From the IMG/VR virus record IMGVR_UViG_3300037115_000242: DNA of 24,078 nucleotides. One strand, given 5' to 3'. How positions within the stretch are numbered: position 1 is the stretch's first letter; each line of letters opens with the position of its first letter. Of this stretch, positions 122 through 20,856 are shown piece by piece. The translations under genes were made by a program, and so were the position numbers. The notes under the pieces were generated by a model, which did no database searches, was not told the DNA's origin, and saw only the letters and a list, made by a program, of their open reading frames with translations. The DNA comes from an uncultured virus (IMG/VR IMGVR_UViG_3300037115_000242) (taxonomy: Duplodnaviria; Heunggongvirae; Uroviricota; Caudoviricetes).

Positions 122-769
122 CTACTGCTGGGCTGGCAGTAAAAGTCGGTACTTGGTCCGCTCGAACAAGGCTGGCTCGATCTCCCACAGTGTGTACTGG
201 TTCCACACCTGTCGTGGCGTCTTCGTTTCGGTGCCGAAGGAAAAGACAGCATCGCGACATTTGTCTCCCTCTTCTTTGGGCAGACTTCTCGCCTGCACAA
301 AAACGTGAGCCATGCGCGACACTTGCTGTAACTCCTCCGGCGGAATCGCCCGAGGACCTTCTTGGATCGCCTGGAACTGCTGACTGAGGAGATTTTGCAA
401 CCCTGGAACGTCCGCTTCGTTGTAGTGATTCTTGCGACGCCACGCGGGACGATGGATGTCCTTCAAACGTTCCTTGTGCTCCTTGACCGCGTCCTTGTAG
501 TACAGGCGAGCACCACCGACGCCTACCGCGAGGTCGGCGACCGCGATGTTGTTAAGCAGGTGGTCGGGCATGTCGACATTCGTCCAGAACTCCAAGACCT
601 GTCGCGCATCGCGAGGAAGAGGCGGGTGAATCGCGGAGCCCTGTGAGTTGTACGACTTGTTGTCGGTCAACTTGACCTCGATGAGGTCAACATCACTTGG
701 CTTGCGGTCTTCTGCAAACTGGCCTCCTATTGGAGTCCCTCTGTGCCGACGTGGAAGATCACTCACCAT
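122..769 (-). CDS. Hypothetical protein with N-terminal GTP-x-GGQF tag
   Basis: 215-aa ORF overlapping the stop of the upstream gene; N-terminus PRRHRGTPIGGQFAEDRKP matches two other ORFs in the window. Confidence 0.8.
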   Translation of the reverse strand: MVSDLPRRHRGTPIGGQFAEDRKPSDVDLIEVKLTDNKSYNSQGSAIHPPLPRDARQVLEFWTNVDMPDHLLNNIAVADLAVGVGGARLYYKDAVKEHKERLKDIHRPAWRRKNHYNEADVPGLQNLLSQQFQAIQEGPRAIPPEELQQVSRMAHVFVQARSLPKEEGDKCRDAVFSFGTETKTPRQVWNQYTLWEIEPALFERTKYRLLLPAQQ

Positions 770-5179: not shown

Positions 5180-8100
5180 CTACGACTCGTTCATCTCATC
5201 AAAGAAGTGATCCGCTCGTCGATTGAACTCTTCGTTGTCAGCCTCTCTACGAGCATCGTCGTCTTGGCGGGCTGGCGCTACGTCGGGATCGAGCGGGTTG
5301 CCTGAGGAGCGTTCTCTTGGATCAACTGGCTCGCGTGTCGGAGTCTCTCCGCCGGTCTCGACATGAACGGTGCGACTCGTGGGGGTTTGCCATTCGTTCA
5401 AGCGTCGATTGGTGGCATCAACCTCATCAGGGCTCAAGACGTGAGCGTCGTCTGCCGTCGTGTATCTACCATCGGGCGACGTCGTGGGTCCTTGATCGTC
5501 TGGCGTCAATACAGAAGGTTGACGAACAGACCTATCCGGCTTGGTGATTCCATGACGACGAGTGTGCAACTTACGACCAACCGCCGCCGCGCCCACCGCA
5601 CCAGCCGCAATTGCCCCGAGACCAAGAACGCCTGCGCCGACGGGGGCCATCGCAAGACCCACCGTGCCAATCGCGGCATACTTGGCTGACTTTCTACCGG
5701 CGACCGCAACCTTCCCCATTACCGACTTACCCCTCATTGCCTCAAGTGGATGAGGTCCTACGTACTTGGCACCGTTGACCAATCTACTGCCCACCGCTTT
5801 CGCGGTATCTTTCGCTCCGGCGACGCGATGAGTTGCCCCTTCTGCATCACGCTTGCTCATCTTCGCCCGAGCCGCCGCCGAGAAGTTCTTCGCTCTCGCC
5901 GCTGCTGAAACCTTGGTCGTCCCTCGTCCACCGGCTGTCGCACCCTCGACACCAGCGGCGGCTTGTGTAGCGGCTAAACCTTCGGTGGTCGTATCGCCGC
6001 CGGTTGGAGTTCCTCCGGTATCACTGTCTCCGCTGGGCGCTCCAGAACCGGCATCATGCTCTCCGGCTTTCCCGGCACCACTTCCGCTTCCACCGCGACC
6101 TCCACCAGACATTCCGCCTCGACGGTGTCGACCACCACCTCGACGACCAGCAATGGCACCAGCACCAGGTACGCCGTTGTTCGATGCGTAGTTGCCCGCC
6201 ATACGACGAGCCTTGGCCCAGTGACTCTCCAGTTCAGCGCCACCGATGGCACCCAGTGTTCCGGCTGATGCCGCGTATCCCATCACGCTCGATGGCTTGA
6301 AGGGAGACGGAGCCTTCAGAACTTTCTTGAAGAACATGTGGATGATATAGATGGAGACGAGTGGGCAAAGTCCGATCCACAGCAGAGCGAAGATCGAACC
6401 TGGTCCTGCTAGCGCCGAACCAACCGTCGCGAGCATTGATGAGATGCCCGCGATAACTGAAAGCACGAGTCCCACGCACGTTGAGAAGATGACCAGGCTC
6501 AACGTCTTCTTCGCCATCATCAAGAACTTGCCTTCGCTGTTCGCAAACGGCAACAGCATGAAGATCAGCATGATGGGCAACATCAAGAGAAGTAAGAGGA
6601 GCGCGATCTTAGAGATGAGCAACGCAATGGAGAGTCCGAAGAAGACCAGCATGATGATGGTCGAGGAGAACAGGAACAGGAGAGCCGCCGTCTCCGCACT
6701 GACGTTCGACGTGCCGTGCAAGTTGTTCAAGTAATCGGCAATGCCCGCTCCGTACTGCTCTCCGTTGATCGTGCTGGCCGGAGCGCCATCGACCGTCAGA
6801 CTGCTGGGAACTGTGCCCGAGGTATCGCTCTCGATGTTGGCCGGAGTTGCCGCCCACCAGTTGAAGACTGAGTAGTCGGAGTTCGCGATGCCACCGGCCA
6901 TCACCGTCGGCGTCCCGTACGTTGTGCCGCCGTTGTCGTGCACCGGGGTCTCAAAGAATGCTTGACAGTCGTCTGCCGCCACCGCTGCGCTGCCGCTCGG
7001 GGTGACGCTGTTGTCTACTTGGGTCCATTCGGAAGGGCTGATGAGACCACCACTCTGCACGTCCCACTCCATTGGCGTGTCGGTACTCGCGTTGGTTTGA
7101 CACGCGGCCCAACCGACCATCGATTCGTCTTGCGTCTGCGGAGAGATCGCACCGTTCCACGCGAGTGACGACGACGACGAAGAACCGGTGCTACCAAGAA
7201 TCCCGCCGCTCACGGCCCCCGAACTTTGATCGTACGTTCCGGCGAGAGAGGGCGACTCCGAGAGAGCAATCGCCGCGCTCTCCATCTGCGCCTGATATCT
7301 CGGACGGATACCCGCGTTCTGTTCAAGAAGGTGACAGTACGAGAGCAAGCCGAAGTTGTTGCTCGAACCGAACTGCTCCTCGACGTAAGTAGGAACCGCG
7401 AGACCCTCCCACAGTGTGTTGAGGGCTATGGGGACAGCGGCGTAGTTCGAGCCCACACCAGCACTGCCTCCATCGGCGGCGGAGACTCCGCCCGCCGCGC
7501 CCGAGTAGGTGTCAACGAGAGCCTCGTTGTAGTAGTAGCAGTTGAGCGGATCGCCAAGAGCCTGTCCGCCGCCATTCGCCCCAATGCCCGACACGGCAGC
7601 GGCCATGAGTTCGGTTGGTTTGGATGTGATCGCACTCACGGTTCCGTACACGGTATTGAGTATCCACGCGGGAGAGAAGGTGGGATCGGGATTTGTCGCC
7701 GTTGTCGCTGACGAAGCGTTGATCATCAAGGTGAAAATCGCCACCACAACGACAATGCGAAAGAGACTGCTGAGGAGACCTTTGCCACTGCCGCGTATCC
7801 GACTGATGAGCAGAGCCACGAGAGCGACGATGACGACAATGACGATGATGTTGCCCTGGACGAGCGCATTGTCAAACGCCGCCGACGCACTGTCCACCGC
7901 CGTGCCGACTGATGACGAGATGCAGAAATTGTTCGCGAACTCTGTTGATGAGACACCGAGCCCCCACTCGGTGTCGCCTGCTGACATTAGCGGGGAGATC
8001 AGTCCACTGCGCTGGGCGTAGGCAATGTCGTTGCCGATGTTGAAGCCGAGTGAAAGATCGGTGTGCGTCGTTCCGAGCGAGCCAAGCCAACGATTCGCTG

Positions 8101-8353
8101 GCAGGTAGTTCGATGCGGTGGTCGAGGCCGCGACACTGCTTGCGGTTGAGGTCGGACAAAGAGTCGTAGCCCCGGTGGTCGCGGCGGGAGTGGTGGTGGG
8201 TGGTGTCGTTCCGGCTGATGCGGACGAGACGGCGATGAAGAGGGGAAAGATCGAGGCAACGAGTAGCGCAAGGAAGCCTTTAACTACTCGTTGAGACCAC
8301 ACCTTTCTCATGCTTTCGTCTTTCTTCACGCATTCTGGTCGCTCCGTTTGCAC
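5180..8353 (-). CDS. Large polytopic conjugation membrane protein, VirB6/TcpH-like (alternative start ATG 8311)
   Basis: Signal-like N-terminus, several TM clusters, large extracellular Cys-containing loop, Gly-rich/charged cytoplasmic tail; lies between pilin-like and hydrolase genes. Confidence 0.65.
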   Translation of the reverse strand: MQTERPECVKKDESMRKVWSQRVVKGFLALLVASIFPLFIAVSSASAGTTPPTTTPAATTGATTLCPTSTASSVAASTTASNYLPANRWLGSLGTTHTDLSLGFNIGNDIAYAQRSGLISPLMSAGDTEWGLGVSSTEFANNFCISSSVGTAVDSASAAFDNALVQGNIIVIVVIVALVALLISRIRGSGKGLLSSLFRIVVVVAIFTLMINASSATTATNPDPTFSPAWILNTVYGTVSAITSKPTELMAAAVSGIGANGGGQALGDPLNCYYYNEALVDTYSGAAGGVSAADGGSAGVGSNYAAVPIALNTLWEGLAVPTYVEEQFGSSNNFGLLSYCHLLEQNAGIRPRYQAQMESAAIALSESPSLAGTYDQSSGAVSGGILGSTGSSSSSSLAWNGAISPQTQDESMVGWAACQTNASTDTPMEWDVQSGGLISPSEWTQVDNSVTPSGSAAVAADDCQAFFETPVHDNGGTTYGTPTVMAGGIANSDYSVFNWWAATPANIESDTSGTVPSSLTVDGAPASTINGEQYGAGIADYLNNLHGTSNVSAETAALLFLFSSTIIMLVFFGLSIALLISKIALLLLLLMLPIMLIFMLLPFANSEGKFLMMAKKTLSLVIFSTCVGLVLSVIAGISSMLATVGSALAGPGSIFALLWIGLCPLVSIYIIHMFFKKVLKAPSPFKPSSVMGYAASAGTLGAIGGAELESHWAKARRMAGNYASNNGVPGAGAIAGRRGGGRHRRGGMSGGGRGGSGSGAGKAGEHDAGSGAPSGDSDTGGTPTGGDTTTEGLAATQAAAGVEGATAGGRGTTKVSAAARAKNFSAAARAKMSKRDAEGATHRVAGAKDTAKAVGSRLVNGAKYVGPHPLEAMRGKSVMGKVAVAGRKSAKYAAIGTVGLAMAPVGAGVLGLGAIAAGAVGAAAVGRKLHTRRHGITKPDRSVRQPSVLTPDDQGPTTSPDGRYTTADDAHVLSPDEVDATNRRLNEWQTPTSRTVHVETGGETPTREPVDPRERSSGNPLDPDVAPARQDDDARREADNEEFNRRADHFFDEMNES

Positions 8354-8366
8354 ACCTTGAGTGGGC

Positions 8367-8669
8367 TTATCCGCCGAATGCCTTTAGAACGATATTGCAA
8401 ATCCCATCAACAACGTCCAAGAGGTAGCCGATGAACGTGCTGGGGTCCGACAGAATCATTCCGAGGATCACGGTCAGAATCAATCCAATGTGATTCCCTC
8501 GCTGGCCTTTGCGACGGTCCATGATGTACTTGACCGCCGAGAAGATGACCAAGAGCACACCAACGAAAGCCATCCACTTCGTGACCACTCCGATGCCAGA
8601 GGCTCCACTCAAGGTGGTCCAAAAACTCTGCCAACTGGAGGTGAAGTCCACGGTCGCTGCTACTAACAT
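8367..8669 (-). CDS. Pilin-like (VirB2-like) two-TM protein
   Basis: 100 aa, two hydrophobic helices separated by a basic loop RRKGQRG; SD AAGGGAG; leads the transfer operon. Confidence 0.55.
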   Translation of the reverse strand: MLVAATVDFTSSWQSFWTTLSGASGIGVVTKWMAFVGVLLVIFSAVKYIMDRRKGQRGNHIGLILTVILGMILSDPSTFIGYLLDVVDGICNIVLKAFGG

Positions 8670-8700
8670 TGGTGACTCCCTTTAGTTCGTCTGTTCTTTG

Positions 8701-8710
8701 TTATGGGTGC
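8701..8710 (-). promoter_or_regulatory. GCACCCATAA motif, copy 1
   Basis: Exact 10-mer, intergenic, 31 nt upstream of ATG 8669. Confidence 0.6.
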
Positions 8711-8733
8711 GAGATGACGAATTTCTCATACCT

Positions 8734-8874
8734 TTAGATGCCGAACGCAGTGAGAATCGCAAACACGACGAGTAACGCCGCTATTCCGAGGATCACGTAG
8801 AGGCCACGACCGTCCCGCCACTCCGCAATTTCCCGTTTTTCTCTCGCTGTTTTAGAGAACTTCTCTTCGTTCAT
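8734..8874 (-). CDS. 46-aa tail-anchored membrane peptide (MNEEKFSKTAREKREIAEWRDGRGLYVILGIAALLVVFAILTAFGI), below the ORF-track cutoff
   Basis: Hand-translated; ATGA overlap with the stop at 8871; clean C-terminal TM; fills the gap. Confidence 0.75.
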   Translation of the reverse strand: MNEEKFSKTAREKREIAEWRDGRGLYVILGIAALLVVFAILTAFGI

Positions 8875-9308
8875 CCCTGCAAGAGTACATCGGAATAATC
8901 TCCGGCTGGGCGACTATCGAGCATTGGATTGGGCATTGAACTGGAGACCAACGTTCCCCATTTTCCACCCAAAGGATCGACTTGAACGCCACAACACGTG
9001 AACTTGCCCACGTTTGAACGACGTCGGTCGAGAAGTGACTGATATTGACGAAGGTGAAGACCACTCCTCGTCCTGCTTTCGATGAGCCAGAACACTGCAC
9101 CTTCAATGATGAACAGCATGGAGAAGCCGTAGGTGCCGATCAATTGATACGCGATGAGTGAGGCGAAAAGACCGGGAAGAAATCCGATGGCCGCGATGAT
9201 GAGACCCCGAGCCGGTAAGTCGAGACCTTGGATCACGACTCGACGTTGCGACGATGACTTACGTGTGAGGTTGGTGAGGGTATAGACCTTCATCCGGGCA
9301 AGGGCCAC
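8871..9308 (-). CDS. TcpE/PrgI/VirB3-like conjugation membrane protein
   Basis: 145 aa; basic N-terminus KVYTLT...IQGLDLP, two TM helices, basic tail; upstream of pilin-like and VirB6-like genes. Confidence 0.55.
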   Translation of the reverse strand: MALARMKVYTLTNLTRKSSSQRRVVIQGLDLPARGLIIAAIGFLPGLFASLIAYQLIGTYGFSMLFIIEGAVFWLIESRTRSGLHLRQYQSLLDRRRSNVGKFTCCGVQVDPLGGKWGTLVSSSMPNPMLDSRPAGDYSDVLLQG

Positions 9309-9637
9309 TAACGAACGACCTCGAAGACGTGACCGACGAGCCGATACTGAGTGTCCGGTTCGAGATCGCCACCGATGTTTCCGGTCACCGTGTAGCGGAC
9401 ATCCGGGGCGTCTTCATCTTCACCCATGATGGAGATCGATCCGCCTTCACCGGCTTGCGCGGTTCCACCGATTCCGGTGATGGCGACACCACTGGGTCCT
9501 ACTGAGGAGATGCCGTCGTCACCCGAGATGGCAATGCCGTAGACGCCCGCCTGAGCGAGTCCACCGTCACCGGCAATGGCAACCCCGTTGTCACCGGCAA
9601 TGGATTCTTCTCCGTAGCCGCTCAGTTCACGAGCCAC
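9308..9637 (-). CDS. Gly-rich octapeptide-repeat protein (phage-type x-A-x-A-G-x-x-G repeats)
   Basis: Seven 8-aa repeats and C-terminal GNIGGDLEPDTQYRL; start reassigned to GTG 9637 by TAGTG overlap with the upstream stop. Confidence 0.7.
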   Translation of the reverse strand: MARELSGYGEESIAGDNGVAIAGDGGLAQAGVYGIAISGDDGISSVGPSGVAITGIGGTAQAGEGGSISIMGEDEDAPDVRYTVTGNIGGDLEPDTQYRLVGHVFEVVR

Positions 9638-10560
9638 TACCGGCGCTCCGCGATGCTCATGGAAACAGCCCACAGGTTGTCCCCGTAGTTCGGGTGCCGC
9701 GTAATCACTTCGCACACTAAGTCCTTTTCGTCTTCACTAAGAGTACCGAATGGTGCAAAGAGTGATTCGCTGTCGAGCAATCCGCGCTGGAACATCTCCG
9801 CGCACTTCACCGCGCCACCGCGCTCTTTGACGTCGGTGCGGAGTGTCGTCGCTTGGCGCTTCGGGATGGTCGCACCGAGTGGTCGTGGTGCAGGTCCGGC
9901 CACCGCGTCCCACGCCATCTGGCGAGCGGCAATGGGGTCCTTCTCCACGGTCTTCATGGTGAATGACGCCACCGAGTCTTCGTCGAACTCATCAAGGTTG
10001 ACCTCAACGACTTCGTTGGCTCCGACCGCTTCGACCCGACGCAACACGTGGTCGTTGCCACCGTTGTGGTTGTACTCGGTCGCGTCGCCGGTCGTCGTGA
10101 ACGACGTCTCCATCACTCGACGATGGAAACCATGCGAGGGTGGGTACTTCGTCGTCTTCTCTCGAATATCGGCAGCGATGGCATCTTCCTCGATTGGGGT
10201 GAGGAGTCGACCAAGACGGTTCATCTCGCTCGCGCACGTGTCGTGGTACTCACGCAGTGCCCCGTCGTCGCGGTGATTCGAGCGACCCTTCATCGCGGCA
10301 ATGGCGGCGAACTTGCAGGCGGAGTTGATCGAGGCTTCGTTGACCACTCGGTCAGGGTTCTTCACCACGCTGGAGAACGTGAGCAATGCCTCTTGCATAA
10401 TGTCGTCCGCGTCCGCGCCGACGTACTTGCGAGCGTAGGTCTTCGACCATTTCCTGGCCCATGCCACGGTCGTTTCGAGTTCACCACCGTCGGGACGTCG
10501 GTTCTCCGCGTACTGTCCACCGGCCTTCGGTGTTCCCTTGGGTACTCGTGGTTGGCTCAT
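9637..10560 (-). CDS. Sigma-70-family-like protein (regions 2 and 3-like) with N-terminal GGQY tag
   Basis: Start reassigned to ATG 10560 (SD GAAGGGA); ARKY-VGADADDIMQEALL resembles region 2.1-2.2 and RLGRLLTPIEEDAIA resembles region 3 LGRxPTxEE; no clear region 4 HTH. Confidence 0.55.
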   Translation of the reverse strand: MSQPRVPKGTPKAGGQYAENRRPDGGELETTVAWARKWSKTYARKYVGADADDIMQEALLTFSSVVKNPDRVVNEASINSACKFAAIAAMKGRSNHRDDGALREYHDTCASEMNRLGRLLTPIEEDAIAADIREKTTKYPPSHGFHRRVMETSFTTTGDATEYNHNGGNDHVLRRVEAVGANEVVEVNLDEFDEDSVASFTMKTVEKDPIAARQMAWDAVAGPAPRPLGATIPKRQATTLRTDVKERGGAVKCAEMFQRGLLDSESLFAPFGTLSEDEKDLVCEVITRHPNYGDNLWAVSMSIAERR

Positions 10561-10586
10561 GTAATTCCCTTCGGTTCTTCCTTCTA

Positions 10587-10596
10587 TTATGGGTGC
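10587..10596 (-). promoter_or_regulatory. GCACCCATAA motif, copy 2
   Basis: Exact 10-mer, intergenic, 26 nt upstream of ATG 10560. Confidence 0.6.
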
Positions 10597-10642
10597 GAAA
10601 TGTGACATCTTGTGGGATTCCGTTATCCCTCAAGGAGATGGC

Positions 10643-11192
10643 CTACGGAGTGGCCCTTGGGATGCTGTAGCCGTTCTCGGTGGCCCAGTCGAAGAAGTAA
10701 TCGACCTCCTGCGCCCGAAGATCGGCGAGACCTTTGATGTCAGCAGGATCGTTCAAATTGAAGTACAGATCGACGACTTCGGATACCTCTTCACGCTGAG
10801 TGTCCTCGCTGATGTCGTCGTCGTACAGAGCCTCGTCGAGAATTTCGTTGCGGATGGACTGACTGAAACTGTCTTGATTTTGATTCGCGTCCGCCAACTT
10901 TTTCTGGAGGGCTTCGATCATCATAGATTTCTGAAAGTCGATATCTTGATAACGACTTGACAACTTCTCGTAGTGCTTGGCGTGATCCAAGGGAGTCAAC
11001 GTGCCATTCTCGTCCGCTTGACGGTGGGCACGGATGAGTTCATCAATCGAATTCGACGTCTCCATGATCAAATCCTCACGATCAGCAAGCGTCGTGGGCT
11101 CAAAGTCATTGTCGAGATCGCTACCGTCAGGTCTGCGTCCTTCTGAGAACTGTCCGCCGACGGGGGGTGCCCTTCGGTTGTCGATTCGTCAT
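10643..11192 (-). pseudogene. Acidic protein with N-terminal GGQF tag, frameshifted in a C6 run (true lesion or sequencing error)
   Basis: SD GAAGGAG + ATG 11192 reads MTNRQPKGTP; removing one C from the run at 11162-11167 continues VGGQFSEGRRPDGSDLD... in frame into ORF 10643..11071. Confidence 0.75.
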
Positions 11193-11217
11193 CTTCGCTC
11201 CTTCGTCTCACCCTTAG

Positions 11218-11227
11218 TTATGGGTGC
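11218..11227 (-). promoter_or_regulatory. GCACCCATAA motif, copy 3
   Basis: Exact 10-mer, intergenic, 25 nt upstream of ATG 11192. Confidence 0.6.
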
Positions 11228-11235
11228 AACAACGT

Positions 11236-13395
11236 TTAGTCGCGAAACATAGCCTTTCGCACCTGGCGATGCCGGGGGTCGTCCGCGTTCTGCCAACTGT
11301 CATCGTGAATCCACGTGAGGTGCGTGGTGTGTCGAGAAGCCATGACACAGAGACGTCCGAGCGACTGCGCGTGCTCGCTGTTGTCCTCGCCCATCATGGG
11401 ATCGAGCGCCACTACCGACGTCCACTCGCCACCCTGGAGGCGGTCGGCAGTACCGATGCGCACCGGATAGTCGTGAAGCATGGCGGTGAGAATGGTGGCT
11501 TGCGAGTTCCGTGAGACGATGGCCGCGACAGTGCCGCAGTCCGTCAGTGCTCGCGCTCGATGCGCCATGACAGTGAGCGCGTTGATATCGTCGGCGGTCT
11601 CCACTCTCGGTACTTCGATGGCTTCGACTTCACGTACCGGCTGTCCATCGACCGTCACCAGTTCGCGCTCAAGGCACGCACTCTCGAACTTGAAGTCGTA
11701 GAGCGGAGCCACCACACCGGCTGACACCGGACCGAGGCGATACGTCGTAGAGAGGGCGAACCGCGCTACGTCTTTCGTGAACATCATCGACGGAGCCGGA
11801 AGGAAAGGACCATGCCCCGTCTTCCAGAATGACGTGTCAACGGTGATGACTGGTCCAATCTGTCCGGGGTCGCCCACCATGAGCAACTGAGGGATGCCAC
11901 TGCGAGCGCGAATCACCGCCGCGTAGGTCGCTTGGTACGCCTCATCGACGATCATCAAGTCGTAGGACTCACTGTCCTTGGCGATGCGAGCACCCGCGAG
12001 CGTGCGAACGACGACGACAGGATCGACACCCTTGATGTCCTCCGCGTCGCGACCGCTGTTGCTCATCATCAGGCATACGCGGTCACCGATGACTGCGTAG
12101 ATGCGGTCGTAGAGCGAAAGTACCTGTGCGCGAGTGAACGCGCAGACGAGAATCTGCATATCGGTTCGCGTGGTGAGTTGCTCCACGACGTCAACAATCA
12201 GACTCGTGTTGTGGGTGACCATCAAACCATTGCCGCAGAGGAACAGGTGGTTGGGAGAGTCGACTTGAATGCACTGAGTCGGAACCGAGGCAACTGGCGT
12301 GACCGTGAGATAGCGATTATTTGTTCGCGTTCCATTGCAGGTCGACATTGCTTTTCTCGGGAGTCGAGCGGCCCCTTCTAGATAAAAGGTCACTCGATAC
12401 TTTGGTCCACAATCGCGACCATTGAGTGTGGCGCGTCCTTCGGAGAGCGATGCCTTCACGCCAAGACTCCGGGCGAGAAACTGAACGCCTTGAGCGAGAT
12501 TCAGTTTTGTCGACATGAATTCGATCATGCCGTGTCGTTCTCCAGCAACGTGTCCATCGGTGTCAATGAGACCTTGCAGAAGCGCAAGGCGCTGTTCTTT
12601 CGATGCTCGAAAATAGGCGTCAGGAATGTGCTTGTTGTTCAACAGCCCAGCAACGCGAAGTTGCTTTTGTAAGCCAAGTATCCCAATGGTGATTGGGTCC
12701 TTGCGCTCGGTCGTGACATAACCGGCTTCCTCAATGAACTGGCGCATCCACTTCTGGTCTTCGACCGATGATGTGATTGCACCACATGATGCAGTGCCAT
12801 CGCCAAGCCAAGCGCCTAAGACGTACGGGTCAATAGGAAGTTCTGCGTGTGGTAGTTCCAGTGGCTTTGCGAGGTTCAATCGCGGTCTCTTGCTTCGTGG
12901 AGTCTCTGCCAAACAACGAGTGGTGTGATTATGAACTCCACTGCCAATCCCGCGAAGTATTGGTCCAGTCTTTCCGGGGTAGTGAGGTATCGCTTGTTTT
13001 GCGACTTTCTTAGGATTCTCCAACATGACGGGCCAGAGGTGGTCGGCATCAGCGATGACACTCTCCCCATCGTCGGTTGAGACCTCAAAACAGTCATGAT
13101 CGTAGAAAATTTCTGACTTGAACGTCACGGTGCAGGGGTTCCCTTGCTCGTCGATGAGTTGGTCGCCGATCTGGACATCGCCCATTGTCGTCCAACCAGT
13201 TGGCGTGGGGAGTGGTGTATCAAGAGCCAGTGCTTTACCTGCCCCCGGAGGACTGTCCACCACCACGTCGTGACCGCGCCAGATTCTCTCTAGCGTCTTG
13301 GCGAGAACGGAGCCAACCTCTAGGGGCTTGTGGAGAGGGGTGTCAGCATAGATTGTCGCAACGCTATTGCCGGTGGTGTCCTTCTTTATGAGCAT
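11236..13395 (-). CDS. Superfamily 1 (Upf1/DNA2-like) helicase containing an intein
   Basis: SPPGAGK|T Walker A split by the intein; IVDEAYQ, VGDPGQIGP, TYRL, TADRLQGGE and RLCVMASRH motifs. Confidence 0.9.
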   Translation of the reverse strand: MLIKKDTTGNSVATIYADTPLHKPLEVGSVLAKTLERIWRGHDVVVDSPPGAGKALALDTPLPTPTGWTTMGDVQIGDQLIDEQGNPCTVTFKSEIFYDHDCFEVSTDDGESVIADADHLWPVMLENPKKVAKQAIPHYPGKTGPILRGIGSGVHNHTTRCLAETPRSKRPRLNLAKPLELPHAELPIDPYVLGAWLGDGTASCGAITSSVEDQKWMRQFIEEAGYVTTERKDPITIGILGLQKQLRVAGLLNNKHIPDAYFRASKEQRLALLQGLIDTDGHVAGERHGMIEFMSTKLNLAQGVQFLARSLGVKASLSEGRATLNGRDCGPKYRVTFYLEGAARLPRKAMSTCNGTRTNNRYLTVTPVASVPTQCIQVDSPNHLFLCGNGLMVTHNTSLIVDVVEQLTTRTDMQILVCAFTRAQVLSLYDRIYAVIGDRVCLMMSNSGRDAEDIKGVDPVVVVRTLAGARIAKDSESYDLMIVDEAYQATYAAVIRARSGIPQLLMVGDPGQIGPVITVDTSFWKTGHGPFLPAPSMMFTKDVARFALSTTYRLGPVSAGVVAPLYDFKFESACLERELVTVDGQPVREVEAIEVPRVETADDINALTVMAHRARALTDCGTVAAIVSRNSQATILTAMLHDYPVRIGTADRLQGGEWTSVVALDPMMGEDNSEHAQSLGRLCVMASRHTTHLTWIHDDSWQNADDPRHRQVRKAMFRD
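12208..13233 (-). mobile_element. Class 3 intein (342 aa) with LAGLIDADG homing endonuclease
   Basis: Starts ALALDTPLPTPTGW, block B DADHLW, LAGLIDADG helices LGAWLGDG and LQGLIDTDG, block F TQCIQV, ends THN before Thr+1. Confidence 0.92.
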
Positions 13396-13431
13396 TGCAG
13401 GGCTTTCTAGTGGTGACTTGTTACCAACTTA

Positions 13432-13665
13432 CTAACCCCATGTATCGCCATTCGCCACAGGCTCTACGCCGAAAATCAGGGATGTGATACCGAGTCCGGC
13501 AGTAAGGATGATGAGAAAGAACAATGCCGTGGGCTCGATGATGTGGAAGGGGTGACTCACGTTGAAATTAGTGAGCACCGACCCGATCATGAGTAACGAC
13601 AGTGCGCTGTAGAGAAACAGGACCGAAACAAATAGCCACCAGTACCTCGTGAGTCGACTCATCAT
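13432..13665 (-). CDS. Small two-TM membrane protein
   Basis: 77 aa, two hydrophobic helices; ATGA overlap with the VWA gene. Confidence 0.7.
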   Translation of the reverse strand: MMSRLTRYWWLFVSVLFLYSALSLLMIGSVLTNFNVSHPFHIIEPTALFFLIILTAGLGITSLIFGVEPVANGDTWG

Positions 13666-14963
13666 TTCTCATCCTTCACGTGGACAACCTTCGCCCACTC
13701 CGGTGTTGGGTAGTAGTCACTTGCTTCGTCAATGAGGCACACGACAACGGGCACTCGCGGTCGCTCAGTGGGCCACGGGGTGTAGCCGTCCGTCATGACC
13801 ACGATCACCGAGGGCTTGTGCTTCATCGCGGACTCGATGCCTACGCCCATGTCCGTGCCGCCGTTACCTGCTCGATTGGTCAAGTCATCGTTGCGACGAA
13901 ATTTCACCGTCGCTCCCACAACCGTGTCCACGTCGAGGATAACCAATTGCTGATCGCGAACCCCGAGTTGCTTGGCAATACCGATGATCTCGTTAGTCGC
14001 CGCGAGGAACATCTCCGTGTTGACCGATCCTGACGTGTCGCGAACCACGGCCACCGTGGGGATCGGCGTGTGCAGTCCTGGCATGGCTACTCCGTTGAAG
14101 ACGGGGATGCGTCGGTTGCGACGACGGTACGTTGACTCGTGGTCACCCGCCCGACTCGCAATGGATTGGCGCACGAATCCTGCCAGCACTCGACGCCACG
14201 AGACGACGGGTGGAGCAAGAATAATTTCAGCGGTCTTGAGTAGTCCACCGGGAACGGTGCCGGGGTGCTTATCGGCGAAGGCGCGAATCTCACCAGCGGT
14301 TGCGATCTGTTTGAGTTCGCGCTCGATATCGCTAACACCGGGGTCGCCCGTGTCGTCTTCCTCAGCGGGTGAAGGGTTGCCGCTCGCCGAACCACAACCC
14401 TCGTCGTCATCGTCCTCATCGGAGTCACCACCGCCATCACTGCCGCCGTCGGTGCCATCCCCATCACCGGGGTCTCCTGGTTGCTTCTGCGACTTCGGAG
14501 GCGGTGGCTGGTTCTTGAGTATTGCGTAGTACGTCTCGGCCAGTTCGTGGCGCTCGGCTCCGAACTGCTCGGCCAGAACTCCGTACTCACCGAGAGCGAC
14601 GCATCCGGCTTCCACCAAGTCGTCGTTGTTCGCGGCGTCTGCCGCCCGATTCCAGAGTTTGCGAGCGGCCCTCGTCGTCGGCACAGCGGCTTCGTTGGCC
14701 CGAGCGAAGTCGTTGCTGAACAAGTGACCGCACTCGTGTAGGAGAGCCTCGGAACTGAGTCGATTGCTGAACTCTTCTTGCACGTAATCGAAGTTGATGT
14801 AGAGCCGATACTTGTCGTCGCACGCGAACGTCTTCGTCTCATTGGAGTTGAATGGTCGCAACGCGAACAGGATGTGCGACATGTACGGCATGATTTCGAG
14901 TGCCCCGACGACCCATCCACTGAGGAGAGCCATCTGCTCCTTGTTGGGCTTGGTCGCGGACAT
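13662..14963 (-). CDS. DUF2201-type putative metallopeptidase with C-terminal VWA-like domain
   Basis: HECGH (HExxH), acidic Gly/Asp linker, MIDAS-like DTSGS, GGTDM, MTDGYTPWP. Confidence 0.88.
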   Translation of the reverse strand: MSATKPNKEQMALLSGWVVGALEIMPYMSHILFALRPFNSNETKTFACDDKYRLYINFDYVQEEFSNRLSSEALLHECGHLFSNDFARANEAAVPTTRAARKLWNRAADAANNDDLVEAGCVALGEYGVLAEQFGAERHELAETYYAILKNQPPPPKSQKQPGDPGDGDGTDGGSDGGGDSDEDDDDEGCGSASGNPSPAEEDDTGDPGVSDIERELKQIATAGEIRAFADKHPGTVPGGLLKTAEIILAPPVVSWRRVLAGFVRQSIASRAGDHESTYRRRNRRIPVFNGVAMPGLHTPIPTVAVVRDTSGSVNTEMFLAATNEIIGIAKQLGVRDQQLVILDVDTVVGATVKFRRNDDLTNRAGNGGTDMGVGIESAMKHKPSVIVVMTDGYTPWPTERPRVPVVVCLIDEASDYYPTPEWAKVVHVKDEK

Positions 14964-15346
14964 TACTGCACGTCCTTCAAGGACTCTGATTTTGCGATCT
15001 TCCAGTTTCGAACGGTTGTCGATGAGACACCAGCCACCCTCGATAGGTGGTTGTTGCTCATGCTCTCGTTCCCAACTGTTGCTTCGATGATGGAGCGAAT
15101 GGAGTTATCGCACGCGATGCGGATTGAGGCGAGGTGTTCCAGCACGAGAAGCGCGTAGATATCGACGAGGTCGAGTCCAACCAGTGCTTCGGCCTTCACC
15201 ATCTTTTCGATTTCGGCACTCGCGCCATGACGCACGTAGTTCGCGCATTGGGTAACGTGCTCTCCGAACTCGCCTTGGTTTAAGAGACGAGACGGCGACA
15301 AAGAACCCTCTTGTGGACCTGAACTGTTGCCAGCACGTTGGGTCAC
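14963..15346 (-). CDS. Small protein with C-terminal helix-turn-helix
   Basis: MSNNHLSRVAGVSSTTVRNWK HTH pattern; start reassigned to GTG 15346 (GTGA overlap); TAATG coupling to the VWA gene. Confidence 0.65.
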   Translation of the reverse strand: MTQRAGNSSGPQEGSLSPSRLLNQGEFGEHVTQCANYVRHGASAEIEKMVKAEALVGLDLVDIYALLVLEHLASIRIACDNSIRSIIEATVGNESMSNNHLSRVAGVSSTTVRNWKIAKSESLKDVQ

Positions 15347-15921
15347 AACGGGCACTCGTTGGCGGCGTCTTGCATAGCGGTGAAGACCTCTTGACGCCAC
15401 GCATCGAACTTCTCTTCGTCGGTGAGGTCGGTCTTTTCGGTGTCGTCCTCATCCTCGTCATCACTGTCGTCGAACTCACTGAGTGAGTCGAGTGCATCAC
15501 GAAGCGCCGATGCCCAGTCGGAGCACTCATCTGCGTGGTCGGTCATTTCCTCGCTCTGTGAAGTGGGGTGGCCGAAGCCGTCCTCAATGGAACTAGCGCC
15601 CTCGCTGTACTGCTCGCCGACCTCTTCGACCGCATCGGCGGCTTCTTCCATGACGGCCTGAGCATCATCCAGAGTGAAGGTCTCACCCTGACTGCCCTCA
15701 ATCCAATCCTCAACGGCTTCCTGTGCGCTGTAGAGCGACGAGAGTTTGTCGTTGCTGGCGATCTGCGATGCGCGAAACGGACCACACTCGATGTGACGAA
15801 CCACGCGAGGACTACGGAATGCCGCCGCCCAGTAGTAGCCCTGACCAACGTCAATGGACTCGTGGCAGGAGATGCACGTACCGGCGACCTTCTGTGCTTT
15901 GTTGACGGTGTTCACTCGCAT
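15343..15921 (-). CDS. Phage-like protein with N-terminal CxxC...HxxC zinc finger and acidic helical C-terminus
   Basis: CISC...HIEC; very D/E-rich remainder; SD AAGGAG. Confidence 0.75.
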   Translation of the reverse strand: MRVNTVNKAQKVAGTCISCHESIDVGQGYYWAAAFRSPRVVRHIECGPFRASQIASNDKLSSLYSAQEAVEDWIEGSQGETFTLDDAQAVMEEAADAVEEVGEQYSEGASSIEDGFGHPTSQSEEMTDHADECSDWASALRDALDSLSEFDDSDDEDEDDTEKTDLTDEEKFDAWRQEVFTAMQDAANECPL

Positions 15922-15980
15922 GTCGTGCTCCTTCGATCTACGAGTTATCTAGCCCCAATATCGAGCCATCGCTCCAGGGC

Positions 15981-16193
15981 TCAGGTGTCTAGGCCAGCCA
16001 TCCAGACGGTATATGCCTCACCAACCCATCCGGTGTCGAGTTCAGCGTCGATCTTTTCGATGATCGCTTCGATGTGAGGTTTGGTGACGTCGTTGACCGG
16101 ATAGATGTCGCCGTTGTTGACGGAGAGAAGAACGTCGATGACTCGTCGTAGATCGTCCTCATCCAGAACCGGGACCTCGTGCGTTAGACCCAT
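15981..16193 (-). CDS. Small acidic hypothetical protein
   Basis: 70 aa, overlaps the upstream stop; GGAG SD. Confidence 0.6.
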   Translation of the reverse strand: MGLTHEVPVLDEDDLRRVIDVLLSVNNGDIYPVNDVTKPHIEAIIEKIDAELDTGWVGEAYTVWMAGLDT

Positions 16194-16702
16194 TCTCCGG
16201 CCTTACCGATGAGGACTCCGTGTATTCCCTCAGTGACAGTTGCGTCGTTCAGGATTATCAGTTCGGTGATGGAGTTGGTCGCGTCTTTCTCCAAACTCGT
16301 CGGCATAGGTCCGACTTGCGCGAAGCCAATACTCGTGACGTCATCGAAGAAGAACGAGAGGTAGTACGCGGGCACCGAGAATCCAAGTTCGGTGTACGGA
16401 TACATTTGCTCATTGGTGTTGATGGTGGTCTCTCGTTCAGGAGCATCAATAGGCGCGGGGAAGACATGGTCGATCACTTCGCGCAAAATGATGTCAGTCA
16501 GATCGCCAAACTGCGTCAGTGACGCGAGTAGTTCTGGCGTCGCGACCAAATCGAAGCACTCTCTCGCCGACATAATTCTCTTGCGCAACTGAATCGTCGC
16601 GTCAGTGAAGACCTGCTGTTGAGCGTCGAACATCGCACGAATGGATGCCGCGTCAACAGCGCTCGGGTACATGGTGAAAACGTTGGGGATATTCGCGGTC
16701 AT
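16184..16702 (-). CDS. Hypothetical protein
   Basis: 172-aa ORF, ATGA-coupled to the upstream gene. Confidence 0.65.
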   Translation of the reverse strand: MTANIPNVFTMYPSAVDAASIRAMFDAQQQVFTDATIQLRKRIMSARECFDLVATPELLASLTQFGDLTDIILREVIDHVFPAPIDAPERETTINTNEQMYPYTELGFSVPAYYLSFFFDDVTSIGFAQVGPMPTSLEKDATNSITELIILNDATVTEGIHGVLIGKAGEWV

Positions 16703-17241
16703 GAGATTTTTGTTGCTACCTCAAATAAATACGCGTCGAAGTGGCGACCCACAGGAATGCTGGTCGTAGTGCTCGCCGCCACGACCCACACTTGACCAGT
16801 GGTAGCCCGGTAGGTGACTTCGTTCTGTGCCACCACACCGTGCTGATCCACCAACGACTTCGGCTTTGTGGTGAACGCTCCGAGGATGAGGGAGTTCTTG
16901 CCGACGTGGTAGTCGCAGAGAACCTCGCCATTGCTGTTCACACTCAGTGCGTCGTTGATCGAGGTCACTGTGACCGAAAACTGTCTGTCAACCACTGCCA
17001 CTGCTCCAAAGAGGGTCGAGCATTCCGTGGCGAGTTCCGTATCGTACGTGGCCTTCTCGGACGCGATGAGCGCATTCTTCTCCGAGTTAGTGCCGTTGTT
17101 GACCCCGAGCGAGTACGAGAGAGTAAATGCCGCTACCACACCGAGGACGATTAGTCCTTTGGTGGCTTTCGTTAGTGGTGGCTTCGCCTGTCGGTCCGAC
17201 GCGATGGTGGGATTCGTTTTGCGAAAGTAGTTACGCGGCAT
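16699..17241 (-). CDS. Membrane-anchored exported hypothetical protein
   Basis: Basic N-terminus, single TM helix, Cys pair; overlaps the AAA gene stop. Confidence 0.65.
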   Translation of the reverse strand: MPRNYFRKTNPTIASDRQAKPPLTKATKGLIVLGVVAAFTLSYSLGVNNGTNSEKNALIASEKATYDTELATECSTLFGAVAVVDRQFSVTVTSINDALSVNSNGEVLCDYHVGKNSLILGAFTTKPKSLVDQHGVVAQNEVTYRATTGQVWVVAASTTTSIPVGRHFDAYLFEVATKIS

Positions 17242-18343
17242 CCTCGGCCTTCCAACGACCCGTAGACGTGAACAGGTCTTGGAAGGCAGTGATAGTGGCC
17301 TTCGGTACCTTCACACCGTCAGGCATGTGTTGCATCAGGTTACGCATACCGGGGTAGGCCAGATCGGGACGACCCTTCGCCGCGCACATCGTCAGCGCGT
17401 TCACGGCTTGCGTCCACGTCGTGGCGTCACCACGGATGCGAGCAATCGCGGTCAGTGACAACACCAGGGCATAGATGCGGTCGGGACGTTCAGTCCAGTC
17501 GACAATCGAGGGGTCCGCGAGCACTTCGTCAGCGTCGTAGAGGTCAGCGGTCATGAACCACTGGACGAACTCACGACCGGCACCTTCACCGACGCAACCA
17601 ATCGCGGCGACCATGAGAGCCTCTTGGTCGTCCTCGCGAAGTTTCGCCGCCACGGAGACGAGGTTCGTCCACGAACGCGGTGAGGGCCAGCCACGACCGG
17701 CGGTGATTGCGTCCTTCGGCACGCCGGGTTCGATGAGGTCAGGTCGAGTCTTGAGGAAGGCCGCGACCATCGTGCGGGCGGCTATCGTGCGGTCGGTCGT
17801 CGCGAGCATTTCGCGAAGATCGGGTGCCGTGGAAAACTCGAAGCCGCTCATCAAGCCTTCGAGCCATCCGTCGGAATCGAAGTGCCAGTCGAGGTGCAAG
17901 AAACGGTTGGCGACCGGCGCGGCGAGGTCCCACCCATCTACCGCGACGTCTGCCGGGTTTGCGGCGGCAACGATAGCCACAGTGTCGGGAAGTTTCGTCT
18001 CGCCCACGTAGCGTTCTTGAGCGACACGCAACATGGCCTTCTGCACGGTCGGGGCCGACGTGCTGAGTTCGTCAAGAAAGAGAATTCCCTTCACCGCTTC
18101 GCGAAGGCGCTCGGCCCACGCCAACGAAAGGTAACTGGTCACGCCATTTTTGTCGGCGGGAAAACCGAGGAAGTCGGTGGCTTCACGGTTCGACCCCACG
18201 ACAGTCTCGACGTGGTAGCCCCACTCGGCACCCCATAGTTCGATCAGCGCGGTCTTACCGATGCCCGGATTACCCCACAGAAGGACAGGAACGTTAGCCA
18301 TGATGCTGGCGGCGAATACGCGAGTAGTCGGATGGGTAGTCAT
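17231..18343 (-). CDS. MoxR-like AAA+ ATPase (partner type of DUF2201/VWA proteins)
   Basis: GNPGIGKT Walker A, LFLDE Walker B, AAANP sensor, ANRF, PSPRSW; SD AGGAG. Confidence 0.9.
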   Translation of the reverse strand: MTTHPTTRVFAASIMANVPVLLWGNPGIGKTALIELWGAEWGYHVETVVGSNREATDFLGFPADKNGVTSYLSLAWAERLREAVKGILFLDELSTSAPTVQKAMLRVAQERYVGETKLPDTVAIVAAANPADVAVDGWDLAAPVANRFLHLDWHFDSDGWLEGLMSGFEFSTAPDLREMLATTDRTIAARTMVAAFLKTRPDLIEPGVPKDAITAGRGWPSPRSWTNLVSVAAKLREDDQEALMVAAIGCVGEGAGREFVQWFMTADLYDADEVLADPSIVDWTERPDRIYALVLSLTAIARIRGDATTWTQAVNALTMCAAKGRPDLAYPGMRNLMQHMPDGVKVPKATITAFQDLFTSTGRWKAEDAA

Positions 18344-19203: not shown

Positions 19204-19433
19204 GCGATACCGCAGACCTCGACCTAGAGAAGAAGGCCGTCCTCATCGGCGAATATCTCGTGCGTGACCTGAACGAAATTGGTCTCGGGCACGTCCAAGT
19301 AACTCTGAGCGTGACACCGTCCGAAAATGGCCCCGTGGTCACCGTGTCGCACACAGGTGACTCCGAAGACGACACGGTCGTGGCGACCCTCGTCAACGCC
19401 CTCCTCAAAGAGCAGGAATGGCCGGGGTTCTAG
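19200..19433 (+). CDS. Small acidic hypothetical protein
   Basis: 77 aa, overlaps both neighbours. Confidence 0.6.
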   Translation: MSDTADLDLEKKAVLIGEYLVRDLNEIGLGHVQVTLSVTPSENGPVVTVSHTGDSEDDTVVATLVNALLKEQEWPGF

Positions 19434-19981
19434 TCCGCAAGATTGTCTCCGGGGGACAGACGGGGGCGGATCGGGCCGGTATTGACTTCGCCATCGCCTA
19501 CGGCATTGAGTACGGCGGTTGGGTGCCCAAGGGAGGCAAGGCCGAAGACCTCACGACCCCGCCAGGTCTACTCGCGCTCTACCCGTTACTCGAAGAAGCA
19601 CCTACAACGTCAATGGCCGCTCGAACCAAGTTCAACATCCGCGACTCCGACGCGACCCTCATCATTCGTCCTCACGGCGGAGTGATGTCACCGGGAACGA
19701 AGTTGACTATCGAACTCTGTGAGCAACTCAAAAAGCCCTACGCAGTCATTGACCCGAACGACTGGGATGGAGCCGATCAGTTCGCGGAGTTTCTCCACTT
19801 CGTCGATAAGTCGTGGCGAGACAATCACATGTGGCTCGATGGAGAGTCCGAATCAACTCCAATGGACCCCATCGTGCTCAACGTGGCGGGTCCGCGAGAG
19901 AGTAAGTCGAAAGGCATCTACGACGCGGCGATGGGTTTCCTCGTCGAGTCCGTTGGTGTGGTGCAGTACGCCTCGGCCTAG
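19418..19981 (+). CDS. SLOG-superfamily protein (putative molybdenum carrier / circularly permuted YpsA type)
   Basis: KIVSGGQTGADRAG, GGWVPKG, RTKFNIRDSDATL, LNVAGPRES signature. Confidence 0.88.
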   Translation: MAGVLVRKIVSGGQTGADRAGIDFAIAYGIEYGGWVPKGGKAEDLTTPPGLLALYPLLEEAPTTSMAARTKFNIRDSDATLIIRPHGGVMSPGTKLTIELCEQLKKPYAVIDPNDWDGADQFAEFLHFVDKSWRDNHMWLDGESESTPMDPIVLNVAGPRESKSKGIYDAAMGFLVESVGVVQYASA

Positions 19982-20289
19982 AGCGCGAGGAACGTCTTTA
20001 CTTGCTCGTCCGTGAGGCTCTCGTTCTCGCCCTCGGGGTCAACCAGTCCGATGAGGACCACGTCACCACAGATGACGTCCGTCTCTCCGTACGAGGCGAC
20101 CCACAGTGCGGTGGCCTTCTCGTTGATCGGAAGACGATGAATCTTGCCTTCTTCGTTCAGGTACATCTCGATGTTGTGAGCCAGGAGTCGAACGCGCTCG
20201 ATATAGCCACCGACCGCGATGCTCAGTGCCGCGTACGAGGTCTCGCTTTTGAACTCGGCAACGCTGGTCGTTCCGTCGATCTTGAGGAT
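19978..20289 (-). pseudogene. DUF3846-like gene lacking its start codon, disrupted by element insertion
   Basis: Frame upstream of ATG 20166 reads ILKIDGTTSVAEFKSETSYAALSIAVGGYIERVRL...MYLNEEGK...LPINEKAT...ICGDVVLIG; no start codon before an upstream in-frame TGA. Confidence 0.75.
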
Positions 20290-20714: not shown

Positions 20715-20748
20715 AAATTCACCCTAGCAAGTGCGCACATAGGAATTG

Positions 20749-20782
20749 TCTTTTTGTGAAATATAAACATTTCACAAAAAGA
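20749..20782. promoter_or_regulatory. Perfect 14-bp inverted repeat, candidate operator in the divergent promoter
   Basis: TCTTTTTGTGAAAT-ATAAAC-ATTTCACAAAAAGA in an AT-rich intergenic region. Confidence 0.7.
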
Positions 20783-20856
20783 GACTGAAATTGCAAGGTG
20801 TGAACTATGAACATGATATGGTGTGAATAATGAATTCCAGAGAGGAGGTGAAAATT

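Follow-up and report, generated by a model that had tools for sequence, protein, structure and literature searches.

The 24,078-nucleotide (nt) uncultured-virus record IMGVR_UViG_3300037115_000242, hereafter the window (the whole stretch of DNA analyzed), belongs to what we describe as a conjugative DNA element of a peat-soil actinobacterium. One of its genes codes for a highly diverged sigma-70 family protein with five parts. A peptide tag at the N-terminus is followed by sigma domain 2 and the first two helices of domain 3; an acidic linker then replaces region 3.2, and the domain 4 position is taken by an acidic domain made of helices. A ten-base word, GCACCCATAA, stands before this gene, and similar words occur in excess on the plasmids that carry the gene family. 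We propose, with about an even chance of being right, that the protein is an element-encoded specificity factor without sigma domain 4 that reads this word at promoters consisting of a -10 element alone and regulates its own gene. The gene and the parts of its product are arranged as follows.

9637..10560, minus strand: sigma-like gene, 307 amino acids and a stop codon, N-terminus MSQPRVPKGTP by translation
10480..10560, minus strand: N-terminal peptide tag R-x-P-x-G-x-P-x-GGQ[FY]A, residues 1-27, modeled as disordered (predicted local distance difference test score, pLDDT, 61-70)
10282..10479, minus strand: sigma domain 2 homologue, residues 28-93, three helices, with the acidic helix DADDIMQE resembling region 2.2
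10111..10281, minus strand: helix hairpin resembling sigma regions 3.0/3.1 by hhalign, followed by a conserved PPSHGFHRR, residues 94-150
9991..10110, minus strand: acidic disordered linker, residues 151-190 (pLDDT 42-57, net charge -6), its start in register with region 3.2
9640..9990, minus strand: acidic, all-helical and conserved C-terminal domain, residues 191-307, delimited on a domain model

The open reading frame (ORF) 9637-10560 is a genuine conserved gene. The strings DADDIMQEALL, RLGRLLTPIEEDAIA and TLSEDEKDLV, on which the original prediction of a sigma-like protein was built, are all present in its translation, and four relatives (50-59% identity) begin at the ATG at 10560, which was therefore preferred as start codon to another ATG further upstream, at 10608. 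The stretch is present in 20 DNA runs from 17 studies, mostly peat metagenomes, and in no RNA run among the 24 runs listed. When contigs of four other metagenome runs were compared with window positions 8300-11400, the gene had no insertions or deletions, and 17 of its 18 variant codons were synonymous; the sole amino acid change, V185I, falls in the linker. An exhaustive HMMER search returned 188 representative proteins at E<=1e-3 (49 of them at E<=1e-10), mostly of 300-350 residues, matching end to end and all unnamed. Alignment A1, used below, comprises the window protein and 104 of 153 relatives; the other 49 were excluded as fragments, much longer proteins or partial matches. In the ESM Atlas the protein recovered its own cluster at 0.95, and the leads to sigma clusters all lie below 0.9. 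It matched no NCBIfam or PHROGs family, two scans of genome contigs found no relative, a metagenome scan yielded three short and distant loci that were left out of the analysis, and tblastn found no family member among 50,697 phage records. The tblastn searches did place the family on four Micrococcales megaplasmids, of which three belong to Curtobacterium and the fourth to Pseudarthrobacter.

The resemblance to sigma factors was recovered by different routes. Pfam Sigma70_r2, by far the commonest hit, matched 32 of the 105 A1 members at E<=0.1 (best 3.7e-6), and P0020, a longer member outside A1, scored above the curated cut-off (29.6 vs 24 bits). Run against PDB sequences, the A1 profile matched Mycobacterium tuberculosis SigE at profile positions 39-114 (E 1.2e-4), and sigma factors were 20 of the 23 PDB sequences listed for it. 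With hhalign, A1 aligned to a joint alignment of Escherichia coli RpoS, RpoD and FliA over 138 columns (RpoS 95-238; probability 87%, E 3.7e-6), and the register holds from region 2.1 into the beginning of region 3.2. Single sequences gave P 0.0073 for RpoS and 0.00095 for FliA, and residues 28-155 alone gave E 1.1e-7. Given the agreement of Pfam, the PDB profile search and hhalign, we regard the resemblance in regions 2 and 3 as true remote homology. The alignments place residues ~28-150 in the sigma-70 family, where they apparently cover domain 2, a pair of domain 3 helices and the beginning of region 3.2, and the protein is very probably a sigma-family homologue.

Within this part, DADDIMQE (residues 50-57) aligns to DAEDLTQE of SigE. 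Among the 105 members, D52 and D53 of this helix are Asp or Glu in 94% and 97%, respectively, and Q56 is Gln in 59%. The stretch that had been called region 3-like is in register with regions 3.0/3.1: residues 94-200 matched the region 3 slice of the RpoS/RpoD/FliA alignment at P 1.8e-5 over 31 columns, with LGRxLTxxExDxxAxxIR lying on the LGRxPTxxEiAe motif, and R118, E124, A129 and R133 are each conserved in at least 90%. Pfam Sigma70_r3 matched one of the 105 members (E 0.0078). The AlphaFold (AF2) model built on A1 has a mean pLDDT of 85, with helices at residues 28-45, 51-65 and 75-91, a hairpin of 96-116 and 122-135, disorder over ~155-190 and a C-terminal domain of six helices; a third helix of domain 3 is absent from it. 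On these comparisons the protein has a sigma domain 2 and apparently part of a domain 3, and shows no sign of a domain 4.

The C-terminal domain is the best conserved part of the family, with W217, P225, G248, G249, F268, P270 and G272 each kept in at least 90%. Modeled separately, residues 186-307 reached a pLDDT of 90.7 and a predicted template modeling score of 0.79. No relative of this fold was found by Foldseek against the PDB (best E 1.9), by VIA-align against 48,161 chains (best Z 3.9) or in BFVD (best E 0.85); sigma-4 was not among the fold matches listed, and such lists cannot prove its absence. Sigma70_r4 was likewise not among the 25 of 31 Pfam families listed for the 105 members, nor in 15 longer members. 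The original prediction had seen no convincing helix-turn-helix here, which agrees with these searches, and had called TLSEDEKDLV region 4.1-like. The latter was dropped: when the domain was compared by hhalign with region 4 of the E. coli sigmas RpoS, RpoD and FliA, the result was P 0.11 over 18 columns covering TLSEDEKDLV, and values for this string ranged over P 0.11-0.36, none significant. The domain has a net charge of -4, which is also the family median. Since both the domain and the linker are acidic, a role in protein contact is likelier than DNA binding and fits the domain better.

The second line of evidence is the DNA word. The window has three exact copies of the 10-mer GCACCCATAA (8701, 10587 and 11218), all of them on the minus strand, intergenic and co-oriented with the genes; one more copy, with a single mismatch, is intragenic. 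With one mismatch allowed, none of 100 shuffles contained four or more matches (expected 0.69), and the placement of the word in the window is non-random. The candidate promoter that the original prediction gave to the sigma-like gene corresponds to the copy at 10587-10596. The sites around it, and a variant of the type found on megaplasmids, are these.

10587..10596, minus strand: GCACCCATAA, candidate -10-type word, 26 nt before the ATG of the sigma-like gene
10566..10572, minus strand: ribosome-binding site GAAGGGA, by sequence, between GCACCCATAA and the ATG of the sigma-like gene
11218..11227, minus strand: second copy of GCACCCATAA, with the ATG of the neighboring tagged gene (11190-11192) 25 nt downstream
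8701..8710, minus strand: third copy of GCACCCATAA, 31 nt upstream of ATG 8667-8669, where the first membrane-protein gene in the transfer cluster starts
20734..20742, plus strand: CGCACATAG, word variant of the megaplasmid type, intergenic, before ORF 20830-21243

Listing the 70 nt before each annotated start in the regions of the megaplasmids pS16 (Curtobacterium sp. MCSS17_016) and pPA-B-2242 (Pseudarthrobacter sp. BIM B-2242) that surround the family gene revealed a recurrent word directly upstream of many genes: CCGCGCATAG in pS16, and CCGCACAC(ATA) or CCGCATAG in pPA-B-2242. These words resemble GCACCCATAA and CGCACATAG of the window. The whole of pS16 (545,759 bp) holds 186 sites of [CG]CGCATA[GC]. 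Of these, 77 stand at a fixed short distance before an ORF of at least 50 codons (57 at exactly 7 nt and 20 at exactly 8 nt), 61 stand 24-56 nt before such an ORF with a Shine-Dalgarno sequence in between, and 17 have no ORF of this size within 60 nt. The logo of the pS16 sites is gTCCGCGCATAGg, with no conservation at -35. In 114.8 kb of pPA-B-2242, 67 sites of CCGCA[CT]A[CG] compare with 9 of the reversed word, and a start codon follows 29 of the 67 sites at 8-9 nt. Words that end 7-9 nt before the start codon occupy the position required of the -10 box of a leaderless mRNA. In all three elements inspected for it (the window, pS16 and pPA-B-2242), the upstream region of the family gene itself bears the word.

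The word and the family gene also occur together. Full-length family genes were found on pS16, pCPAA3, D40 and pPA-B-2242 (E 1e-77 to 1.5e-80), and the word was counted on these and on six further plasmids; the counts cover plasmids only.

pS16: family gene present, SCGCATAG 155, reversed control 11
pCPAA3: family gene present, CGCATAG 187, reversed control 20
D40: family gene present, CGCATAG 159, reversed control 39
pPA-B-2242: family gene present, CGCATAG 33, reversed control 8
Frondihabitans plasmid: family gene absent, CGCATAG 19, reversed control 22
Cryobacterium plasmid: family gene absent, CGCATAG 15, reversed control 16
Rathayibacter plasmid W07: family gene absent, CGCATAG 4, reversed control 6
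Curtobacterium small plasmid 1: family gene absent, CGCATAG 3, reversed control 3
Curtobacterium small plasmid 2: family gene absent, CGCATAG 3, reversed control 5
Kocuria plasmid: family gene absent, CGCATAG 5, reversed control 0

An excess of the word, 4- to 14-fold over the control, is thus seen on all four plasmids with the family gene and on none of the six without it. As the plasmids that lack the family show no excess, the two small Curtobacterium plasmids among them, the word is not a general Curtobacterium promoter.

Two other identities for the word were considered and dropped. As a ribosome-binding or start-associated sequence it would not explain the window copies, which lie 25-31 nt upstream with a separate Shine-Dalgarno sequence in between; on pS16 the second class of sites, 24-56 nt upstream, speaks against this reading as well. 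As a sigma-28 promoter it lacks a TAAA at a fixed distance.

A long -10 element with an upstream extension and no -35 element could be read by a factor that has domains 2 and 3 and no domain 4. In the mechanism we propose, domain 2 would bind the clamp helices of the beta-prime subunit of the host RNA polymerase; domains 2 and 3 would read a long word combining the -10 and extended -10 elements (GCACCCATAA here) with no -35 contact; and the C-terminal domain would touch a protein, such as the beta flap or a co-factor, rather than DNA. Because the word precedes the factor's own gene, its tagged neighbor and the first membrane-protein gene of the transfer cluster, such a factor would amplify its own synthesis and switch on transfer genes. 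This is the positive feedback that had originally been suggested, and it is favored by the position of the word, its presence upstream of the family gene, its -10-only geometry and its association with the family; it is confounded by the canonical sigma factors of the megaplasmids. Since these plasmids also carry such factors, and the element continues past the window, it is by inference that we assign the word to the sigma-like protein.

Binding to RNA polymerase is probable, and was modeled by co-folding residues 20-155, with their alignment, and residues 297-411 of Mycobacterium smegmatis RpoC, a stretch estimated to hold the clamp helices. Scores in three runs were 0.55, 0.43 and 0.35 (median 0.43), and the best of three controls scored 0.00, a result graded as 'weak support'. 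Contact agreement between the runs was at least 49% and the pLDDT of the partner at least 62. The mark that this pair passed is passed by 116 of 157 solved complexes and by 2 of 215 mismatched pairs; among those that passed it, scores of 0.60 or less belong to just 18 of the 157 solved complexes and to both of the mismatched pairs.

Several points weigh against a promoter-reading factor, and we give them here with the explanations that they favor. One explanation is that the likeness to sigma is a chance similarity of a helical protein and the repeated word an unrelated repeat. On its own the window protein falls short of the Pfam Sigma70_r2 cut-off (E 0.085; 13.1 vs 24 bits). The structural match to sigma domain 2 that the original prediction had looked for appears in one search and stays below threshold in another. 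VIA-align against the 48,161 chains paired residues 18-93 with sigma-2 of Streptomyces coelicolor SigR at a Z of 6.7, below 8 (root mean square deviation 3.5, 74 residues aligned), with sigma factors in 19 of the 50 matches listed; a Z of 6-7 is the range of chance helical-bundle matches. Unrelated helical proteins such as Sld7 and cyclins score alike, so we take this match as no more than supportive. Full-length Foldseek gave no match at E 0.001 (best 0.073), with sigma-containing entries in 47 of the 50 matches listed. Against chance stand three independent profile methods that agree on the same register over ~100-140 columns, the Pfam matches of 32 of the 105 members together with the member above the curated cut-off, and the non-random occurrence of the word in both the window and four plasmids. 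We consider this explanation extremely improbable.

A weightier alternative, still unlikely in our view, is that the protein binds RNA polymerase via sigma-2 and reads no promoter, acting as a competitor or modifier of the host sigma factor by appropriation or inhibition; the word would then be read by a canonical sigma factor of the element, by a host sigma of the FliA/WhiG type, or by host sigma-A with an activator. Canonical Sigma70_r2 genes are present on all four word-rich megaplasmids (FliA-like in pS16; RpoD-like and FliA-like in pPA-B-2242, the latter beside flagellar genes), and any of them could read the word, whose end, CATAA or CATAG, approaches the -10 box of sigma-28. The aromatic residues that melt promoter DNA are poorly kept, the WW position of region 2.3 being S77 here and Tyr in 54% of the family, and the C-terminal domain is acidic and matches no known fold. 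The result of co-folding may reflect likeness or memory, because sigma/beta-prime complexes have already been solved. The window holds just three or four copies of the word, and most of its genes (11236-18343) are without one; the three Curtobacterium megaplasmids probably form one lineage, giving about three independent lineages in all. In favor of a reader of promoters, regions 3.0/3.1, which read the extended -10 element, are the best conserved part of the N-terminal half, and the word is not accompanied by a TAAA-like -35 element. The 24 kb of the window contain no canonical sigma factor, though the element continues beyond them, and Rathayibacter plasmid W07 has a canonical sigma factor and no excess of the word. 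It is also conceivable, if rather improbable, that a sigma-like fold has been re-used in DNA transfer, binding for instance the transferred single strand or the relaxosome, and that the tag brings it to the transfer machine. The gene heads the transfer run in the window and adjoins transfer genes in two megaplasmids, the tag is common to many unrelated proteins, and sigma domain 2 inherently binds single-stranded -10 DNA. This use of the fold would not account for why the family goes so strongly with a promoter-like word placed as for a leaderless mRNA, and the acidic helix that contacts beta-prime is conserved.

The protein differs in design from the sigma factors it most resembles. Extracytoplasmic function (ECF, group 4) sigmas such as SigE and SigR are the best matches in sequence and structure for residues 28-93, with the three-helix core of sigma-2 and a helix of the DAEDLxQE type. 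ECF sigmas have domains 2 and 4 only, and for this reason the sigma-like protein is not one of them: a region 3-like hairpin is present and a domain 4 is not detectable, and there are in addition the N-terminal tag and a 117-residue domain of no known fold. Many ECF sigma genes bear a copy of their own promoter, as the sigma-like gene appears to do. Sigma-28 (FliA/WhiG, group 3) aligns in register over domains 2 and 3 (E. coli FliA P 0.00095; PDB 6pmi E 0.42), and the word ends like its long -10 box, GCCGATAA. Sigma-28 has a domain 4 and requires a -35 TAAA, whereas here there is no conserved -35 element and no domain 4 was found. Leaderless -10-only promoters of actinobacteria, which are of the sigma-A type TANNNT, share with the words of pS16 and pPA-B-2242 an end 7-9 nt before the start codon and the lack of a -35 element. 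In contrast to TANNNT, the word (C-A-T-A-G/A after a GC-rich CCGCG or GCACC) is without the final T, extends 5-6 bases upstream and, among the plasmids compared, is in excess only on those with the sigma-like family.

Sigma factors encoded by plasmids and phages offer further parallels. SigN of Bacillus subtilis, a canonical sigma factor, was compared by description only; what it shares with the sigma-like family is carriage by a large plasmid. It is described as a sigma factor on the large plasmid pBS32 (PMC10601692). The closest parallel in design is gp55 of phage T4. According to PMC7892883, gp55 has five helices and consists of a sigma-R2 homology domain with a helix-loop-helix after it; its acidic residues contact the beta-prime clamp helices, and it recognizes a -10-like element in the absence of a -35 element. 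The same paper assigns the flap contact to a separate protein, gp33. gp55 acts together with gp33 and gp45, and is activated by the sliding clamp through a C-terminal clamp-binding motif. The design of the sigma-like protein is similar, except that it carries a 117-residue C-terminal domain on the same chain. Kinship with gp55 in sequence was not found, either as a PHROGs family at E<=0.01 or by tblastn against the 50,697 phage records.

The N-terminal tag had also been part of the original prediction, and it is common to the sigma-like gene, ORF 122-769 and gene 10643-11192.

122..769, minus strand: third tagged protein, 215 amino acids, no family match (BLASTP E 2e-4; tag hidden Markov model, HMM, E 4.6e-8)
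10643..11192, minus strand: tagged neighbor gene (tag HMM E 3e-4 on the downstream frame), its frame broken in a C run near 11162

In the window, an additional base in this C run (G on the plus strand) divides gene 10643-11192 between two frames. All four other runs lack the base, so that the break is an assembly error or private to the sample. Among relatives of the sigma-like protein, the best conserved tag columns are G15 (97%) and R5 (86%); 74 of 152 relatives match the strict tag expression, and many others have variants such as GGRFA, GGEF, DGRFGEQ or HPR...G.F. The tag HMM identified three proteins in the pPA-B-2242 region, namely the family gene, its downstream neighbor and one other. 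Matches confined to the tag (family profile positions ~3-70) number 39 on pPA-B-2242, 3 on pS16, 2 on pCPAA3 and 4 on D40, and wherever these were compared they fall at the first codons of coding sequences annotated as hypothetical. Of the 29 pPA-B-2242 genes that follow the word at 8-9 nt, ~22 start with the tag or a variant, by reading the N-termini by eye. The 418-kb Pseudarthrobacter plasmid NZ_CP061722.1 has ~39 tagged proteins in long arrays of 'hypothetical' genes (for example at 152-176 kb and 322-359 kb); most of them have CCGCACAC directly upstream at a spacing of 8-9 nt, and their bodies are unrelated. On other contigs of the compared runs, 30 tag-encoding bases recur behind the word GCACCCATAG, from which it follows that word and tag may move as a cassette. 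Together they look like one cassette placed before unrelated bodies.

The role of the tag could be delivery via the transfer machine or docking on a common partner. A bolder version, to which we attach a low probability, takes the tag as an address label for type IV secretion. The sigma-like factor and dozens of tagged proteins would enter the recipient and redirect RNA polymerase to -10-only promoters before the genes of the element are expressed, so that tagged proteins and word promoters would form one 'establishment' regulon. Phages N4 and phiKZ have RNA polymerases delivered by the virion, and tag-mediated delivery would be their conjugative counterpart. A literature search for the tag (GGQF/GGQFA and variants) found no relevant description, and neither tag nor sigma is mentioned in the passages found in the polyvalent-protein paper PMC5512222. 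Searches with the DNA words returned primer-type matches only, and a search on Curtobacterium megaplasmids with sigma factors or type IV secretion returned nothing relevant among the matches listed.

If our proposal is correct, conjugative elements and megaplasmids of Actinomycetota carry a sigma subunit of their own with an undescribed architecture, in which domains 2 and 3 are joined to a new protein-binding domain that replaces the reader of the -35 element. They would possess a private promoter code heading up to ~190 genes per plasmid, which would explain a transcription program of the element separate from that of the host. An unannotated family of 188 representative clusters would gain a name and a testable function, and the phage paradigm of sigma-4-less factors, T4 gp55, would gain an example from a cellular plasmid. 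Promoter, tag and factor together make up a regulon that is testable in cultured Curtobacterium and Pseudarthrobacter strains.

In the window the sigma-like gene heads a run of transfer genes, which includes the following.

9308..9637, minus strand: Gly-rich repeat protein gene, GTG start overlapping the stop of the sigma-like gene (TAGTG)
8871..9308, minus strand: small two-helix membrane protein gene, start overlapping the stop of ORF 9308-9637 (TAGTG)
5180..8353, minus strand: large polytopic membrane protein gene lying downstream of the third copy of the word and weakly matching TrbL/VirB6

The TAGTG overlaps agree with the translationally coupled run originally proposed, and link the ORFs as far as 8871-9308. 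The name 'TcpE-like' given to the last of these is not confirmed, as it has no Pfam, NCBIfam or PHROGs match. The product of ORF 9308-9637 consists of GD.G.A.AG... repeat units and matches PHROG 18079 (function not assigned; E 2.7e-13), with a weak DUF4774 match, and ORF 5180-8353 matches Pfam PF04610 (TrbL/VirB6) under the cut-off (E 0.0016). The element extends past the left end of the window, and contigs of 53-59 kb exist for it in runs X4 and X9. On pS16 and pPA-B-2242, in both regions examined, the family gene is surrounded by genes for a type IV DNA-binding protein, single-stranded DNA-binding protein (SSB), NlpC/P60 or CHAP hydrolases, helicases and a large membrane protein; pPA-B-2242 additionally carries dnaE and flagellar genes. 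The plasmids NZ_CP126255.1, NZ_CP061722.1, CP018784.1 and NZ_CP126274.1 (418-608 kb) are typed as 'non-mobilizable' by MOB-suite in PLSDB, despite type IV secretion-like genes, SSB and cell-wall hydrolases in the pS16 and pPA-B-2242 regions.

Upstream of the sigma-like gene, a long minus-strand run includes a DUF2201 VWA-like/putative metallopeptidase gene at 13662-14963 (E 7e-19 and 5e-15) and a MoxR-type AAA ATPase gene at 17231-18343 (AAA_5 E 1e-7), neither of which is preceded by the promoter word. A superfamily-1 helicase gene at 11236-13395, also on the minus strand, is split by a LAGLIDADG homing-endonuclease segment. This segment (residues 261-340; Pfam LAGLIDADG_3 E 1.7e-9, Hom_end E 2.4e-6) lies between helicase motifs and is probably an intein, to judge by its domains and position. 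Directly after CGCACATAG, a near-perfect palindrome, CTTTTTGTGAAAT...ATTTCACAAAAAG, spans 20750-20781 on the plus strand, in the gap that separates the divergent ORFs 20223-20714 (minus) and 20830-21243 (plus); it has the look of an operator. The plus-strand block holds a gene for a circularly permuted YpsA SLOG-family protein at 19418-19981 (Pfam PF12694, E 1.2e-38) and, next to it, an FtsK-like ATPase gene at 21987-22739 and a tyrosine integrase gene that runs from 22942 to the end of the window.

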